Source of the DNA: Moniliella sp. 'wahieum'
Lineage: Eukaryota
Length of the DNA stretch: 64,000 bases
Direction of reading: 5' to 3'
Assembly (NCBI GenBank): GCA_003971905.1
Contig: RSEE01000011.1
Location: 372,001-436,000 of the forward strand
Positions 1-29,735 of this stretch are shown piece by piece. The position numbers were made by a program, and so were the translations under genes. The notes under the pieces were generated by a model. That model was given only the letters and a program-made list of their open reading frames with translations. It was not told the origin of the DNA and did not search any database. Position 1 is the first letter of the stretch; every line of letters starts with the position of its first letter.

Positions 1-667
1 TCAACTCGTTTTGGCTACCTCTGTAACGTGTTTTCACTTGGTAGCAGTGCCTCGAAGTGGTGCAGCGGATCGGGTGGGGAATGGGGAATACTTGGGTAGT
101 GCAGTTGATGACAAGCTTTTCAGGGCGAGTCACAAGTAGGCGCTAGGCCAGACGCGTAACATCAGTGTGCCCGGTTGCGTGTGTCTGGTGCAGCCGGGAC
201 AATTGCCACCAAAGTTGTGAGTTCTGTGAGTTGCGTGGCGTGGATGATCATATCAAGGCCAGAGTAGAGAAGACGGAGAACAGCACGATTAGGCAGTTGT
301 CCCCGTCAAGACCCCCAGCGCAGTGTGTCAAATTAACGTTCCTCAGCCGACTGGAAGTGTCCCCCCAGCATCCCCCCGGCGACGTGTCTGTCGATGCCAG
401 AGGAGGGGAGGTGGATTTAAGGGGCTGCTGCCGGCGAGTGAAGCTTGAAGGCGGTAGCAGCGACCCGGGGGGAGGGGCGCGGCGAGCTGGCCCTGAAGCA
501 GGCGTGCTGTCTGCGGCGATTAGCGTGGCTCGCTTAATAGGAGTGGAGCCCGTCTCAAATTTGCGCGCAGCTGGCTGGATTCGATTGGAATTACGCCGAA
601 ATCAAACCGGGTTGCGCTCCTCCGCCCCACCACCTTCTCCCGCAGCCTGCTCCCACTGGATGCGCCC

Positions 668-6853: not shown

Positions 6854-9800
6854 ATGCCCACGGCGCATGCCGAGCATCTCGTCAACGCAGAGGCCACCGC
6901 CGTCAGTCGGCCCTGCGTCGCGCGGCGCGAGCACGCGAGCGCGGCTACTTTGCGTCTGCTCCCGCCACATCCTATGCTGCCCTCCTCGCCCACACCGATA
7001 CCTCGGCCCTCGCCCTGACTGCCTTCGCGACGGAAGCTGCCCAGCGAACCCTTTTCAACGCCCTTGCCCTCCCGCCAGAAGCAGCGGGACCGACGCTGCC
7101 CTTCTCAGGTTCGGCCTCGGACGAGCTAACTGCCCCCCCCCCGGCAACCCCAGCCACGGCCGCCGTCTGTCCTCCTTGGCCGCTGAAAAACCTGTCCCCG
7201 CCCCGGTGGCAGGTGAAGAGCTGGGCATCGTTTCCTCTTCAGCTCAGGATGCGCTCCTTGCCCCGTCTGTGCCCGCGCCCGCGCCCGCGCCTCTGTCTGT
7301 GCGCATTCCCGCCCCCAGCGGCGGGTTGGAAACGATCGCTGAGGACGACTCCGAGACGGGTCTGCTGGCCTCGTTTGTCATACTCAAAGCACAGCTACGT
7401 GAGGTGGGCGGGGTGCATGCGCTTCCTCTTCCGTTGCTTGTCGCACCCTTTGTCAAGGCGGTCATTTCGCCTCGCACAAGCGGATCAGTGACGTCGGCAG
7501 CGCTGCAAGCGCTGGACCGCATGTTGCTTAATGGCATTATCCCTGCCACGGGCGATGCTTCGCACCAAGCTGCGGTGGCGGACATTGCTCATGCCGTGAC
7601 TCACTGTCGGTTTGAAGCGGGGGACCCAGTGGTGGACGAGCTGGTGCTGCTTCGCATCTTGTCGCTGATGCGCCAACTTGCTTGTCCCTCTGACTCGCCC
7701 ATCTCTCCGGCATGGACGCTCTCGAACGAAGCAGTGTGCGAGATTGTCGAGACAGCACTTAGCATGGCTTCTCAAACCCGCTTGAGTGGTACGTTCTGTG
7801 TTTGTGTTACTTTTTCTGTGTTCCTTGCTTCGCCCACCATGACGTCGGACTGCTGACCCTCCTTCGTGTCCCTAGACGTCCTGCGCCGCTCCGCGAACCA
7901 AACCCTGTGCCAACTCGTCCGCACTCTTTTTGAAAACTCGACATTTCCCCCCCCAACGTCAAGCGTCCAGTTCATCCGCTTCGTCCGCCGACGTGCCACC
8001 TTCGAGCGAACCAGCGGCCCTTTCGGAACACGACATTAAAAATGCATCCAATGACCCTGCCCGACCCTAAGAGCCACGAAGTTCCAAGTGCCGGCTTGGT
8101 GGCCAAGGAGACCCGACCCGATTCCGAATCAGGTTCAGGTTCCGAGTCAAGGGGGGAGGGGGAGGTCAAATCCGCTCCCGAGCCGGATCAACCGATCCCA
8201 CCCCAAGCCGAGGCGTCGGCACCCGTACCCGCGTTTCCCGCGCCGACGCCGGTGCCTGTGCCCCTGCCCGAGTCGGATCCGGAGCCAGAGGCGGAGCTGG
8301 TGTCGCTGCCCATGTTAGTGCCAAGCTACGACGTAGCAGCGCTTTCGGAAATCTGCGTGTCATTCTTGCGCTTCTGGATCCACGGGCCGGGGAGACAACG
8401 GATGCAATGCGCTTCCTGGGGATGAACGTGATGATGGCGCTGGTCGAGGCCCATGGTACCTCTCTTTTGGCTCGGTCCGACGTGCTGCGAAGTCAAATGC
8501 AGGATACGGCATGCAACTATCTCTTCCAACTGGCCCAATGCGACAATCCTAACCTTGTCACCTATTCACTTCGCACGATCCAGACCTTGTTTGACTCGGC
8601 GGGCTATTGGCTCAAGTTCCAACTCGAGTTCTTCCTCAAAGAGATTTTTGTCAAGTTAGCACCTACTTTTCCCCTTGCCTTGGAACCTTGGAAGGAACAT
8701 GGAAGTACCGACCCACTTCTTTCCTTCCCGCACTCGTCGCCTGCTACTCCAACGCCCGGAACGGCCCACCGCCTCCGCCCCCGCCGCCACAGCCCAAGGC
8801 AAGTGGCATGGCGCCTCTGACGGGCGAGTGAGAGAGTTGTATGTCGAGGCGCTCTGCAGCCTTCTTGCCAGTCTTTCCCGTGGTGGCGGAGACGCCTATG
8901 TGACGCTCTGGGCCAATTACGATGTGGAGATGGATGCAGACAATGTGGTGGAAGAGCTGGTCCGATTCTGGTCCCGTGCTGTCTTTGCCCAACCGCCTGC
9001 TTCTGCCCAGACCTGGCCAGCTCGAGTCCGGGCCAAGACGGGCTGCAGATGGTGGCGCTGGATGCGATTATTGGACTGGTCCAGTCCCTGTATGCCCGGC
9101 AAAAGGACCCGCTTCTCCAGCCTCCTGAGCTCTGGTCCCCCTCCCTCTTACCCCCTCTCATAATTGGCCGAGAAGAAGGAGCGCAAGGCCACCCTGCTCG
9201 CCGGGGCAGACGAGTTCAACCGCAAACCCAAAAACGGCATTGCCTTCTTCCGGTCGCATGGGATGCTGCCCCCTGCCCCACCCGTGGAGGCGACCGACGA
9301 GGCGGCCAAAAGCGCGGACGACTTGGCCGTCGCTCGCTTTCTGCGATCGTGTCCTCGCCTCGACAAGAAGGGCTTGGGCGAGTATCTGGCGGCGCCGAGC
9401 AACACGGGCATCCTGGAAAAGTTTATTGGTCTGTTTGATTTTGGAGGGTGCAACGTGGCGGATGGGTTGCGCACGCTGCTCGAATCGTTTCGCTTGCCCG
9501 GCGAGGCGCAACAAATTTCGCGCATCACCGAGACGTTTGCGTCGCATTACTTTAGTTTTGGTCCGGCGGGCATTGCTTCGTCCGATGGGGTGTATGTGCT
9601 GGCGTTTTCGGTGATTATGCTCAACACCGATCAGCATAACCGCAGGCGGCCAAACGACGAATGCAGTGGACGATTATCGCAAGAACTTACGAGGCGTCAA
9701 CGACGGCCAAGATTTCGACCAAGATTTGCTCGCGGAATTGTACGAGTCGATCAAGCAAAAGGAGATCATCATGCCCGAGGAGCATGCCGGTACCGCGGGT

Positions 9801-12481: not shown

Positions 12482-12680
12482 CGTAGCCGCTGGGTGCTGG
12501 CTGGCGTGGTGCGGGGCAGGGCAGGACACGGGTGTCTGTCGGGTGGGCGATGTGCGTGTGGGCGCGGCAGGTACATACGGAGTGAGAGCAGGAGACCCTG
12601 CCAGCCCTGGCAGCTGGGTACGGGTGTTGGCGGCGGCGCACTGGCGTGGCCGGTGGGCAGGCAGTGGCTGGCAGGGATGC

Positions 12681-12947
12681 AGAGTGCCGATGGCCGATGG
12701 GCTGGCGGCATCGGGCCAGCGCTGGTCGCCTGCACGGCTGCAGGACGCCACAGGCTGCTGCAGCTGGGGCTGGGTGCGCCGGCTGAGCCTGGCTGAGCAC
12801 GGGCGCTGCCAGGGCTGGCAGGGAGAGTGCCGATGGCCGATGGGCTGGCGGCATCGGGCCAGCGCTGGTCGCCTGCACGGCTGCAGGACGCCACAGGCTG
12901 CTGCAGCTGGGGCTGGGTGCGCCGGCTGAGCCTGGCTGAGCACGGGC
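12681..12947. repeat. direct tandem duplication, two 124-bp copies (12681-12804, 12824-12947), period 143 bp
   Basis: AGAGTGCCGATGGCCGATGGGCTGG...CTGAGCACGGGC occurs twice, identical by eye, each preceded by GGCTGGCAGGG. Confidence 0.92.
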
Positions 12948-13454: not shown

Positions 13455-16400
13455 ATGGCCGCCGCAGCGTATGCGCAGGCGCTGTACGAGCGCACCGGCG
13501 GCTGTCCCTCTGGCACCCCCGCAAGCTCCGCCTGGCCGACGTGGCGGTCGAGCGCGACGGCCGTCTCTATGTCCTCTTCAACGCCGCCGACGGCCCCCCG
13601 CCACTCCCATCGCCTCCTGCCTCGTCTGTGCCGTCGTCCTCATCGTCTTCGCTTGCCCCGCCACCTTCCCGGCCCTCGCTGCCCCTGCCCTCCTCGCCCT
13701 CGCCGCCCCGTCCCGCTTCGCCCGCTGAGCCTGCCTCGCCCACGCCCCATCCCCATCCACATCCACATCCACAGCCACATGCCCATGCCCAGTCCCACCC
13801 CCATTCACCACCCCCGCCAGCCCCTCTCGCCTCCGCCCCGCGATGTCATCACCTCCACCCTCGCCCTCGACGGCCCCCGCTGCTCCTCCTCTGCCGCCTG
13901 GGTCCGTGCCGAGCCCGGAACGCCTTCCCGCCTCGCCTTTTCTCTGGGCCCTGACCCCGGCGCTGTGCTGGTTGCACGCAACCTGTTGTCCAGCATGCCG
14001 CCCTCAGCCAGGAGACCGCACGCGCCTACTTGGCCGCCCATCGCTCCTGGATCTTCACCACGTTTGCCGCCTCGTGCGCGTTGGAGCCCCACGAACCCCT
14101 CGTCCTCCTCACTTCTGTTCAGCTCACATCCGACTGGGCTCTGGCCGTACATGCTGGAAGCGAGCGGGCTAGTGATGTTTCTTTCTACGTCCCTGCCCAC
14201 CTCTACCCAGAAGAGCACGGGTTTGTGGGGATATTGGGGGCACGCTAGCCCTAGCACCTCCCTCCAATATGGGCCCTACCGTGGCCTGACACCAGTGGTC
14301 TTTTACCCCCACCTCCGCTCCTAACCCCCACCTGGAGTGGACCCGACGGTAGGAGCCCAGAGGTCTCGTAGAGCCCGCCAACAGCCTTCTTTCTCTTGGT
14401 CCAGACCCCTAGCTTGCTTCTTCGTCCTTGCCCTCTGCACGGTCCGACACTCTCAAGCATCGGTCCCCTACTGCGCCCCGCATGCATATCCTCCGCCGCC
14501 CGACACCGTCAGCTCGTCAGGCCTGCCTCGCGAACCAGTGCCCCCGCAGAAAGATCGGGTGGCGGCACCACAACAGACCTCCAAGACCCTCTCTACTCCG
14601 TTCCACAGGGCCCGGCTCACTTCGTCGCATCCCCCCTCCCCTCCATCTTGTACCACGAAATGAGCCGCCCTTGATCTCTGGGACCGATGCCAATGTGGAT
14701 GTACAGGACTCCCTCTTGCATGGCTGGCATGGCATGCAGGATGTGGTGCAGCAGGGTAAGCAAGGTACGTTTCTCTTTTCTCTTCCTTCCCCCCTTTTCC
14801 CCTCCTAGTAGACAAACTAACTTTCCGCTTGCTGATCCATCACCGAGCAGGTATCGTTCCGGACCAATGCATCGTTTTCCAGCCGAGTCGATCCATTTCA
14901 ATCGATTTGGCACCCAGCCACGCCCACACGCCCGCAGGGGACCCAAGCAAAAGACGAAAATAAAGACGAACAACAAGCGAAGGTGGTCCCAGCGGTAAAA
15001 AGTCCCAACAGTGCTCCGGTTACCGTGCCGCGGTTTGTTCCAGCCTGGGGGGTCCCCTGGCCAGGCAGTGGGGAATCCTTCCTTGCGCAGGGGACGACTC
15101 ACCTCTTTCAGGCTGGGACAAGCTCGGAACCTAAGAGGTCTTCCCCCCCGACCTGGAACCGATGAAGATCAGTATCGTGCGACCCTCTGCTTGTCCTTCA
15201 TTCCATCCTGCGCTGGAATGCCCCGGCGCAGGCCGAATTTACCTCTGCATCTGACCAACTGGCATTGGAGCTATTGCGTCTCGGTTCCCTCTCCAAGGAG
15301 GAGGATCACTTGGGTACGAGGACCCACGGCTTTTATTTTCCCAACAGCAGCGTACCTGGTCTTCATCCACTGTCTTTGGTTCCATCCTCTTTACTGCTCA
15401 CTCTTTGGAATCTCCCACAGCATCCACGTCGCCCCAACAGGGGTTATCGGTCCGAAGGACTAGTACGGCCCTCACAGGCGGAGGGGTGGAAGATCCAGGC
15501 TCCCCATCTTTGGTGGATACCAATACGCTTGCCTATCGTCGTGGACGGCTGCGGCGACTTGGTTGGAGGTGGAAGTGGGAAAGAATGGTCTGGTGTGGGG
15601 CAAGCTTCGACCGTTCCACGTTCCCCGAAGGGCATTTTCTATGGGACGGACGAATCGGCCTGGCCGATTTTGTTCCCTTCATGACCCGACGACTGGGACG
15701 AGTCACCGCACGTCGCGTGCCTCCCTGGTCAGCCGGAAGGCTTGGGCCTCCATTTGGACTCGGACACTCTGGATAGTTATTCCACCCCAACGATTACCAC
15801 TCCCAGTACACCCAGCTTCCCTTACCTTCTTCCGCCCCACTTGCGACCAGGAAATGACCGCACTCGTTCCGCGCCCGTCGAACAGTCTGTTCACCGACCC
15901 GTGTCCATCCGCGCCTCCACCTGGGGATCTCCACAACGAAGCCCGGCCTTGCCCGAAGAAGACTACGGCCCGACAACGCGGTCTAGGCTTGCTTCTCTCT
16001 CGCTGGTCAAGGAGGGTGAGGTGGTAGGCTCACTGGAGGATCCTTGGGCGCCCGCCGAACCTAGTCCGACCACTTCCCTCCTTGGGTTCCGCATCGTCAG
16101 CTTACCATCCGCTGCGGCGTCAATCGGCCATGGTATACCGCTTGGACACGGTCCAAGTGGATTGGGCACTGCGGCGAGACTCGTTTTCGTCTCATCCCAT
16201 ACGCATACGCATACGCATGCGCATCCCCGGCGCCGCCTTCCCTAGAACCCACAATCGACCGCTCGTACTTTCCCCCGGGCTATGCACCCACCGCCACCGC
16301 CACCAGCACCAACATCAACATCAACCCCCCACCCTCCCCATCTCACCGTATGCACCTTCACTTTCACCTTACTACCCTCCTCACTCGGCACCCAGCCGTA

Positions 16401-25766: not shown

Positions 25767-28188
25767 TTACAGCTCGCTCAGTCCAACCAGGCCATTGGCA
25801 GCGACATAGGGAGGTGAGACATGGGGTGCTTCGAGGTTAGTTTTCCAGATGGCGGTCTGGTTCAACGATTCTGGGGCTTCAACCAGCACCACAGCCATGG
25901 CAGCAGCTATATACATAGCAGTCGAAGAACGTAGTTAGTATAGCAGTGCATGCGTATCTTGGCAGGGACTGGATTAAAGAGGAAGAGGGAGACGCACCTA
26001 GATGTTGGGCAATGTGGCAGTGGAGAAAGGTGACAGTTGGGCGACGAACCCAGTGACGGACAATGGCCCAGCCCAGAGAAGGCACATCCCATGAATCGGC
26101 AAGCTTCGGGTTGTTCATGTTGATCATCGAGCTATTGTGCGTGAGAATGTCTTCGACCGACGTGTAATTGAGTGTACCATTTCCGGCGCCCAAGAACCAA
26201 ACCGGATCGTTGTGCTTGTGGATCGGGTGGGAAGGATTGGGACCCAGGCGCATGGTGGCGTCCTGGAAGATAAAATCCACAATCGAGTCGTTCTTCATCT
26301 CGAGAAGGGTGTCGCTGGGTAGACCCTTGCCCAGGTTCGACGCTTTTTCAAAGAGAATGGGGTAGCCTTGGAAGTTAAGTGAGCTCAGCGTCTTATTCGC
26401 CCCCAGAAGTGACCATGTCACCGCATTAGTCATGTTGAGTACCAGACGAAACGTGTAATCAGCTTTACGCTGTGGCGGGGGGTCCGCTGAGAAAGGAGCC
26501 AGCGAGGTCTCGTTTTGGAGCGAAGCACCATTGATCAGGGAACCGTTGTAGGTAATCCATGTTGTGCCTGTAGAGGGCAAGTCGTTCGTCACGCTCCATC
26601 CCAGCGCCTTGCCCGCAGCAGTGCCGGGCTGAGGAAATCCGTTACTCCATTTGGCCTTTTGCAACGGAAGATCAGCCTTCTCGGATGGGGTGGGGATGTA
26701 TGGCTGCACCGATGGAACGGGGAAGCTAAGTACCTCGGGAAGGAGGGTATCTGCAGAGGCCACAGCGGATGGATACTGGGTAATAGTCGACACACCAGAC
26801 GGTTCGGGCGTCGCATCTTGCCGTTTGCTTGCAGACAACTTGCTCTTTGATGCCACCGCGGATGAGGGAGTGGAGCCAGAGCTGCTCTTCTTGTCCACAT
26901 CCAGCACGGCGTATCCGGTCAAAATTTGGGGCAAATTACCACATGCGGTCAGACGCATGCGGTATTTCCCAGAAGATGTGGAAGTGGGTACAATGACACT
27001 GTAGCGTGTTCCCAGTGTCAGCTGTACCACTTGCACTTTTTGCGGCTTGACAAATATACCATCACGAGCGACAACCCACAGGTCGTGTCCGTCAATGGAA
27101 AAGCACGACTGCCATTCTGCTCCGGCGTTAATGAGGTGGATAGCGGCCCAGTTACCGTCTGTGCTGCCGAAGGAAGAGGTCGGGTAGACCCCGAATGCAC
27201 TGGTTGTGTTCGTGCAAGTACGCGCATTGATGTTCTCAATGCGGTTCTCAAAACTAAGCAGGGGCGGAATACATCCAGTCGGGTCGATATAGTCCTGGAT
27301 ACCAAAACTGACTGGATTCACAGATTGCTCCTTCAGGTCGCCGGCTGAGAGGCAGACTACGCGGCCTTGGGAGTTGATGAGCATCGAATCGACGCAATAT
27401 GGGTCCTGACCGGTTCCACGGTAGCGAATCAGGGCAGTGTCAAACGTCTCGTGACGCCAATCGTGGAGCAAAAGAGGCACAGCTTGTTTGAATGCTTGCT
27501 CTATGCTGTTGTACGCAGACTTGTCAATGGAATTCCAAGGCCGGCCTGTATTGGATGCTGGGTGAATGATGATTGGTCCACGCAGGCCATCAACGTAACT
27601 GTGTATATCAAAGAGGGGAGTATAGCCGAGAGTCAGAAGAAAGGTTTCGGGCAAAAAAGAAGGGAGGAGGCACGTACGTGGCGCGAGTGTGTGAATGGTA
27701 AAAGAAGACGCGGACTGAGCGGCTTTCCACTCGTATGAGTAGTTCCCGTAAGGAAGGATGGGCCATTGCGTGACTCCAGGCACACCGTCCTGCTGGGGAT
27801 CAAGCTGGACAATTCCGTGGAAATGGATGCTGCTCTGGGTGTTGACATTGTTGAACACATGGATACGCACAGTGTCTCCCTCCGTCGCTTCGATTGTGGG
27901 GCCAGGGGTCTGCCCGTTGACGGCAAACGTTTGGCGCCAGTAGCCGTCGGGTGCGAGCCACTCTTGGGTAATCTCAAAATGGTACTCACGAACTGTGCTG
28001 ATTTGGCCACGAAGAGAGGGAGAGGCATCAGCAGGTGCACGTTCCAAGGCTGACGTTGAGTTATGGCGACCAAGTACGATGGGAAGGTTGGGACCAGGAT
28101 TGAGGTGTGAGGGGCGCCCTTCGATGAAGGTAGCCAAGGTCGCCGCAAGAAAGGTCGCACGAAGAGCCAGGGATAGAAGGCTCGGCAT
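25767..28188 (-). CDS. secreted multicopper oxidase (laccase-like)
   Basis: Signal peptide MPSLLSLALRATFLAATLATF; Cu motifs SIHFHG, FYHSH (across a frameshift), HPIHKH, FLHCHIAQHL|AAAM; QDGVPGVTQWPI; introns ~27599-27677 and 25907-25997. Stop position approximate. Confidence 0.95.
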
Positions 28189-29735
28189 CTCTGCGAGAGG
28201 AATGTAATAAGGACGCGGGGCTGGTGGGGCGGTTGGTGGAGGGAAGGACAGAAGAACATGTGAGCTATATATACGGCATGAAGGGCATTTATGAGAGACT
28301 GCGGCGTGATAGACGAGATGCCCTCTCCTCGGCTGTGATTGTATGCGGGCGGTGCATCGACGACCGGGAAACGACGCAGCGGGGTCGAGGCAGAGTGGGT
28401 GTCCGCATTTAGGCTTCATGTGGCCACACACATCATGCATCATGGGATCCGCTTGGGCGTTGAGCCTCAACGTTGAGTGTTGCATGTTGTGTTGTGTGTG
28501 TTGAACGTATGCATATGCTGAACGTCTGAACGATGTGTCCCTTTGAGAACGTTCAAGCTCTTGAAGAGCGCAATACGCACACGCGATAACCTCAGTATTC
28601 AAGTTCACTAATACTGTATGCATAGTATGTCGGCCCTCCATGTATTCGTATGGCTCAAGATGCGAGGTGGGAGAGAGGGCAGAGCGACCTACTAATTGTC
28701 CTTAGCTATACGCGCCTATTCATGCGCCTCATCTGCCCAGGGTGTGCACAGCTTAGAATCGCAGTCAGCGCAGATTTGCGTCTTGGGGACTCTCCACCAT
28801 ATCTCGCTCTGGGAGCGCTGAGGCGTTGAGAACGAGAGGGTCCGAAAAAACCAATGTCAAACATATATGCTGCCCCATACGGAGATGGAGGCAGGCATAA
28901 TGCGTCCTGCTGCTACACGCATGGAATTGCTGGCGCCGGTTGGTCCGTCTGTAGGAACGTTGTTGGCCCACCGCAAAAGCTCCTACACAGTGATACAAAG
29001 CATGGTGCCATGTGTAGCGTATGTGCAAAAGACTGTCTACTCGATATATATATAGCCGACGATGCAATTCATTAATTGCGGCCGCAGTAACCACGAGCAT
29101 GTAATAACCAGCAAAACCGACACTGTTATGCGTAACACATGGTAAAAAACCCACTTTTTGTAAAGTAAAAATCATCGGAGAGCTGCGGAGATCCGCCATC
29201 GCATGTACACGCAGGCCACACTACTCAGGAAGACCACAGTCATCTCGATGTGGCCCCGCGTCTGTCCCACTATATGCAGGTCCCCAGGAGATGAGATATG
29301 CATGCAATACTCATATGCCACCTTCCCACCGCCCATACGTGCTATTATATAAAAGAGTATATATATAAGCGAGATGATCGACGTCCTAGAATGCCGACAC
29401 CAACAACATCTTGAAGACTATGCGTACTTCCCTCTGCTTCCTGTACGTCCTAACAAAAGAGAGTTGTCCCCACAAATTGATCGTCACCGAGAAAGAAAGG
29501 AGGGCCACACATAACCATCGATTTGTCATCCAATTTCCAACCCGCACCAACGCCGAAAATACTGTTTGTGTAATAGCTGGGCTAAATCCCACTGGCCCGA
29601 AGAGGCAACAATTGTTAAGGAGATGAGAGGCGTCGGATAATCCTTTGAGGAGTGAGAAGCCACAAGCTTTAGCCATTGAATACCGTTGTGGCAAACAGAA
29701 CGAAGGAAAGACTGGAGGAGTTGAGATGTGATGCA

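Follow-up and report, generated by a model that had tools for sequence, protein, structure and literature searches.

A frame-shifted locus of Moniliella sp. 'wahieum' very probably codes for a divergent protein of a large unannotated basidiomycete family, tentatively gasdermin-like

Results

The Gene and Its Reading Frames

The window analysed here is a 64,000-nucleotide stretch of the genome of Moniliella sp. 'wahieum' (assembly GCA_003971905.1, contig RSEE01000011.1, forward-strand positions 372,001 to 436,000). It is eukaryotic DNA rich in guanine and cytosine (GC) and carries fungal-type genes, namely those for a multicopper oxidase, an amino-acid permease, an L7Ae protein, a kinase, a Sec7 guanine nucleotide exchange factor (GEF) and an Snf7 protein. 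An original prediction had placed a gasdermin-like pore-forming domain, hidden by frameshifts, at 13455-14330. We found that a real gene lies on the plus strand from 13455 to about 15684. It is longer than the span first noted, because a block homologous to the 742-amino-acid protein P0003 was found at 15175-15279. The parts of the gene, all on the plus strand, were as follows:

13455..13505, +: start codon and N-terminal helix piece MAAAAYAQALYERTGGCP, frame of 13455
13508..13612, +: beta-hairpin piece with LW.P, ADV, DG and LFNA, LWHPRKLRLADVAVERDGRLYVLFNAADGPPP, frame of 13457
13613..13838, +: Pro/Ser/His-rich low-complexity insertion, with a frame switch somewhere inside
13839..13982, +: piece PRCSSSAAWVRAEPG...LAFSLGPDPGAVLVARN, with GPDPGAVLVARN ending at 13982, frame of 13455
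13979..14224, +: core piece, helix AYLAAHRSWIF and strands LVLLTSVQLTSDWALAVH..., including LVLLTSVQLTSDWALAV, frame of 13457
14214..14291, +: piece GLWGYWGHASPSTSLQYGP, frame of 13455
14292..14691, +: linker, with at least one further frame change or intron
14692..14764, +: exon end NVDVQDSLLHGWHGMQDVVQQGKQ, placed by its likeness to P0003 by eye
14765..14850, +: canonical intron with GTACGT donor, ACTAAC-type branch site and CAG acceptor; the frame is kept after splicing
14851..14955, +: exon with IVPDQCIVFQPSRSI, counterpart of the family strand NQC.F.RG
15175..15684, +: C-terminal region from SCDPLLVLHSILRW to ASDQLALELLR, open until the stop codon at 15682-15684 (open reading frame (ORF) 15166-15684)

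The motif string of the original prediction stood where it had been placed. It had been stitched from three frames, but two suffice over 13455-14291: the listed motifs switch between the frames of 13455 and 13457, and a third frame may be crossed within the low-complexity insertion. The Pro/Ser/His insertion described there is real, and P0003 has a Pro/Ser-rich counterpart at the same place. The motif order is also real, since all the motifs recur in that order within a single frame of P0003, and the gene is indeed visible in no single ORF of the window's ORF list. No ATG was found in the other frame upstream of the MAAAAYAQALYERTGGCP piece. Just upstream of the gene, at 12670-12947, lie two copies of a 135-nucleotide unit that start 143 nucleotides apart and are 97% identical, in a stretch with a GC content of 71%.

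Several likenesses were read by eye. In the N-terminal helix piece, YAQALY resembles FQASLY of P0003 and YAKALF of the metagenome locus L203. The piece GLWGYWGHASPSTSLQYGP, in turn, was matched by alignment to GFWGHWGGATANSKQGP of P0003 and SIWGHWESSSSVDRNAGP of L203. At the place of the window linker (14292..14691), P0003 has about 225 low-complexity residues. Downstream of it all likenesses except the block at 15175-15279 are by eye alone: QDSLLHGWHGM in the exon end NVDVQDSLLHGWHGM... resembles QDALLSNWFSM of P0003 (no statistics), and the IVPDQCIVFQPSRSI exon is similar to DQGVVIRRQSI in P0003 and to NQCVFVRG in the family. The intron at 14765..14850 is flanked on both sides by P0003 homology.

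Homologues of the Window Gene

A 97-amino-acid piece of the gene (13955-14245) was searched with phmmer against 1,835,955,588 representative proteins, and three proteins were matched at E <= 1e-3. P0002 and P0003 had E values of 5.1e-6 and 6.4e-6, respectively. The remaining match, to the repeat protein P0004, covered the end of the query alone and was judged spurious. Word-based homologue searches yielded only P0002, P0003 and P0005 (2 of 8000 candidates, 1 of 189, and 0 scored from 1). These three are unnamed proteins from public run assemblies, P0002 of 556 amino acids and P0005 a 339-amino-acid fragment, and no Pfam domain was found in any of them. P0003 is intact in a single frame, with a Pro/Ser-rich insertion at residues ~50-160 after LFNAFEGPPP.

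The blocks of P0003 placed on the window by tblastn were all colinear: residues 15-50 at 13466-13594, in the beta-hairpin piece (E 1e-5), residues 135-206 at 13809-13999, residues 207-290 at 13979-14242 (E 1e-9), residues 280-296 at 14214-14261, and residues 590-623 at 15175-15279 (E 3e-4, 51% identity). Positions 13875-13982 also matched residues 79-123 of P0002, and the family segment F.C..EGAIL was aligned there in alignment A4. The window gene shares with P0002, P0003 and P0005 the motif order and the Pro/Ser-rich insertion after LFNA..GPPP, with block identities of 38-51%. It further shares with the P0003 branch the motifs TSDWA..VH and FWGHW....GP, the C-terminal DPL..LH..L.W, and a DQ.V strand beyond the long linker. 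However, the three homologues read in one frame whereas the window copy shifts frame at least 4 times, and the insertions and linkers are unlike in length and sequence.

A Large Family in Metagenomes

The original prediction had invoked a family of basidiomycete proteins with the motifs G.PLW.P / GDVG / LFN / LVTG. Such a family does exist. Metagenome contigs were scanned with the back-translated motif V-T-G-C-D-K-x3-W, which we take to be a feature of hypothetical proteins of mushroom-forming fungi. The scan gave at least 122 loci, at least 58 of which passed our own context filter as family loci. The other 64 listed loci were chance matches or belonged to an unrelated FVTGCDK..EW group. That group (L136, L140, L141, L147, L161, L163, L165 and others) has FVTGCDK..EW.L.WF..N near the start of ORFs of ~220-250 amino acids. 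An earlier metagenome scan with patterns of the P0003 branch matched 69 stretches and found no relative among them.

From the family loci, 26 distinct N-exon and 57 distinct C-exon pieces were cut. The N-exon pattern is G[FY]PLW.P ... IGDVG ... G.FDFLFNI, and the C-exon pattern is F.C..EGAIL.LP.GA ... Y...H..SWY ... LYLVTGCDK..SWG.A.FS ... Y.W....GP ... NQC.F.RG. No contiguous unspliced full-length family ORF was found among the at least 58 loci. In common with metagenome members such as L134 and L203, the window gene has the order G.PLW.P, (G/A)DVG, LFN, F.C..GA.L, followed by Y...H..SW, L.LVTGCDKTS.W, W..W....GP and NQC.F.RG. The window and P0003 branch differs in having VTT or LTS where the family has VTGCDK, the block being swapped for LTSVQL in the window gene, and it is without the LP..YR..GV segment. 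It also carries long low-complexity insertions, whereas typical family members are compact.

The bridge between the family and the window was a subfamily of L156, L193, L203, L228, L229, L244 and a few others, exemplified by HHRSWLSFA...LILVTGCDKTSDWACAAW...SLWGRWES...GP. A C-exon profile was built from 9 of these sequences. Its sole match among the six-frame ORFs of the window was 13955-14245 (22.7 bits, E 6.4e-6), and it scored P0002, P0003 and P0005 at 38.4, 35.3 and 21.7 bits. The ordered motif set is present across the N- and C-exon parts, with the window pieces in register in alignments A4 (62 rows) and A5 (27 rows); in the latter the beta-hairpin piece was in register with the 26 family N-exon pieces. 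N-exon profiles, broad or subfamily, gave no significant window match.

The 62 members of A4 gave only scattered chance matches in Pfam, searches of PADLOC and NCBIfam (E up to 10) gave no match, and sequence and profile searches of the PDB, the latter with A3, A4 and A5 among others, found no relative, or chance matches only. Literature on gasdermins in Basidiomycota and Agaricomycetes described no such family in titles and abstract openings, and nothing was found in literature on the motif VTGCDK.

Two family copies (L166 and L167) lie ~9 kilobases apart on one contig. In one subfamily (L133, L138, L143, L150, L164, L201) the distance from GDVG to VTGCDK varies by 1-3 nucleotides (428-431), so several of these copies are out of frame or contain a stop. 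They may be broken paralogues or assembly errors.

Frameshifts in the Window

At least 4 frame changes occur within 870 nucleotides at the locus, and there may be as many as 3 others farther downstream. Of these four, shifts 1 and 3 were pinned to a few bases, and both are one C absent from a C-run. At ~13500-13510 the window reads TGT-CCC-TCT, and TGT-CCC-CTC-TGG would give G-C-P-L-W. At ~13980 it reads AAC-CT, and AAC-CCT would give N-P, as in P0003. No stop codon lies within the homologous blocks, and every family motif is kept.

Similar breaks were seen elsewhere in the window. In the large ARF-GEF gene, the Sec7 catalytic domain loses frame twice in ~25 nucleotides at 9640-9665: profile positions 1-143 end at nucleotide 9646, and positions 149-183 begin at 9663 in another frame, with 16 nucleotides between them. 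Set against HNP...K..M...D, presumably the Sec7 consensus, reading across this gap requires that one C and one G have been lost. The permease domain PF13520 (23489-23764) falls into pieces in three frames, 54 and 27 nucleotides apart; these gaps leave no room for introns, so the breaks are frameshifts.

In the ORF of the multicopper oxidase (25879-28698, minus strand, 939 amino acids), ~200 residues separate the second cupredoxin domain from the third.

Fold Prediction and Comparison With Gasdermins

Residues 1-305 of P0003, folded with AlphaFold from a 5-row alignment, gave a predicted local distance difference test (pLDDT) score of 36.2, which was unusable. MAFFT could not place the N- and C-exon pieces on P0003 in one alignment, and only the 20-row subfamily set was aligned correctly. 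The C-exon part was folded alone because there was no contiguous full-length translation and the two pieces could not be co-aligned. For L134 (203 amino acids, 62 rows) this gave a mean pLDDT of 73.9 and a predicted template modelling score of 0.57, with residues 1-155 mostly at 85-94, in a model that covers the second exon only, ~60% of the domain. The model begins with three short strands and a helix of 20 residues, which are followed by six strands and a last helix.

Compared with 350,542 PDB chains by Foldseek, the model matched nothing at E <= 1e-3. The weak rows were mostly actin-capping protein, PR-10 and hot-dog proteins; among the top 36, the RCD-1 pore 8jyz ranked 9 and 10 (E 0.5), the GSDMD pore 6vfe ranked 27 and the bacterial gasdermin 8sl0 ranked 36. 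In the ESM Atlas, the nearest Pfam-named clusters were Bact_GSDM (0.81) and Gasdermin (0.77) for residues 1-300 of P0003, and Bact_GSDM (0.85) and Gasdermin (0.81) for residues 70-225 of P0002; by the tool's calibration anything under 0.9 counts only as a lead, and the two queries, being homologues, are not independent. The best unnamed clusters, at 0.90-0.91, were hypothetical proteins of Basidiomycota and Ascomycota of 181-274 amino acids. Bacterial gasdermins (8sl0, Pfam Bact_GSDM) were thus met both as a weak Foldseek row and as the nearest named ESM cluster.

RCD-1-type fungal gasdermins have in common with the family a similar domain size, the alpha+beta order and expanded paralogues in filamentous fungi, but there is no detectable profile similarity. 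The window gene differs from them in its much longer linker and C-terminal region, and a search for an S8 or CHAT protease gene next to it found none. Its hydrophobic-x-hydrophobic-hydrophobic-T strand may resemble that of RCD-1, as the original prediction had suggested. RCD-1 itself is reported to have reached a probability of ~95% to gasdermins in HHpred (PMC7414189).

In 401 Bacteroidota genomes, the gasdermin model PF04598 gave 46 weak matches, 0 of them above the cut-off; the six ORFs cut from such matches included two judged by eye to be aminotransferases, and no typical bacterial gasdermin was among them. In the same genomes profiles A3 and A4 gave 7 and 1 weak matches, which were judged noise.

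Neighbouring Genes and Fused Modules

In both of the two loci tested, an NPHP3_N domain (a NACHT-type P-loop module, E ~1e-24) was found upstream in the same open frame as the family domain (L168, 663-2018, minus strand; L180, 35-1498, plus strand). L168 and L180 are near-identical, so that the NACHT fusion rests on one lineage. This fusion hints at an immune or cell-death setting. Their order, NTPase and then effector, would be unusual. At L153 the family gene is closely followed on the same strand by TPR repeats (TPR_12, TPR_10; 3-551, minus strand).

Among the 92 ORFs of at least 110 amino acids at 147-22585 of the window, the only families found were kinase, Sec7 and Snf7.

Discussion

The product of the locus is very probably a divergent member of a large basidiomycete family that lacks annotation. 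The family protein opens with an alpha+beta domain of ~280 residues, followed by a disordered linker and then by a C-terminal region that is conserved, and in the window gene and its closest relatives long low-complexity insertions break up the N-terminal domain. The sequence at the locus is stop-poor and 71% GC, with all three plus frames largely open there, and the broad-family profiles alone were not significant on the window (E 3.8), so a chance resemblance could be held to explain the motif string. We give this a negligible probability. One piece alone reached E 5e-6 among 1.84 billion proteins, five blocks are colinear with P0003, and the subfamily profile matched just this piece; the phmmer, tblastn and profile matches together rule the chance reading out. 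A second alternative is that the gene is a decaying pseudogene of the family with real frameshifts. The density of frame changes fits this, the 2.8-kilobase oxidase ORF in the same window is unbroken, and several metagenome copies look broken too. Yet like breaks occur in the Sec7 catalytic domain and the permease of the same window, the pinned shifts are homopolymer-run deletions, and the gene keeps all family motifs, stop-free homologous blocks and intact intron signals; with at least 7 real insertions or deletions some nonsense substitutions would be expected. We therefore regard decay as unlikely. Assembly error is the likelier cause because the pinned losses of C lie in C-runs and the Sec7 and permease breaks leave no room for introns. 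Most likely each frameshift is the loss of one base from a C/G run by an assembly prone to such errors, and the window gene is probably intact.

The interpretation given in the original prediction was supported in part. Gasdermins recur in the ESM and weak Foldseek rows, and no link by sequence or profile was found. Gasdermin is not demonstrated, nor is any other fold. A gasdermin-like mechanism is nevertheless our leading mechanistic guess for the window gene, tentatively held and tied with the alternative below. The N-terminal domain would be a gasdermin-like membrane-attacking cell-death effector. The C-terminal region, in which a conserved block is present, would keep it inactive until the linker was cleaved or unfolded, possibly under NLR-type control. 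We counted for this mechanism the layout of a ~280-residue domain followed by linker and C-terminal region, the NACHT-type fusion, the TPR repeats downstream at one locus, and the two copies on one contig (L166, L167). Besides the partial cover of the L134 model and the calibration of the ESM scores, the following weigh against it. PF04598 (E up to 1 or 10) was unmatched by the window pieces, P0002, P0003 and the 62 A4 members, and no gasdermin model came up in PADLOC or NCBIfam (E up to 10) or in the PDB searches with A3, A4 and A5. Moreover, neither the 92 ORFs at 147-22585 nor the larger ones farther on yielded a gene of the S8, CHAT or caspase kind, and the 28 ORFs beside family loci include no protease (TPR repeats were seen in one of them and DUF6699 in another). 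A protease is reported to lie within 10 kilobases of ~80% of fungal gasdermin genes (PMC8851545); such a neighbour is not obligatory, since the other ~20% are without one. The alternative takes the gene and the family as they are and gives the N-terminal domain a non-gasdermin fold of its own, for example a signalling or adaptor module working with NLR-type proteins. We hold it to be just as possible. It is disfavoured by the recurrence of gasdermin entries and clusters over three kinds of weak evidence; moreover, no alternative fold stands out, and a partial domain can be mis-modelled.

Judging by this window, frameshifts in the genome are mostly assembly errors in C/G runs, and the concealment of the gene by frameshifts should not be taken for biology. 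The double break in Sec7 is a signature of the errors of this assembly and is useful for other findings in the same genome.

If the gasdermin-like reading holds, the family might be a branch of the gasdermin superfamily in basidiomycetes that is invisible by sequence. It could comprise 'missing' pore-forming executioners of mushroom- and smut-lineage fungi, with many paralogues, some of them wired to NACHT or TPR modules instead of neighbouring proteases, and the window branch would carry long disordered insertions in loops of the pore domain. We consider this a speculative possibility. Known fungal gasdermins are reported to be clearly more abundant in Ascomycota (PMC10197012).

The family is large, has no Pfam model in the copy searched and no solved relative, and some of its members are fused to NLR-type modules. 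We know of almost no molecular handles on regulated cell death and non-self recognition in basidiomycetes. The motif pattern, the two alignments and the confident model of part of the domain now provide a route into the family. Because it is large, undescribed and partly fused to NLR-type modules, the family is a concrete candidate cell-death effector of these fungi.
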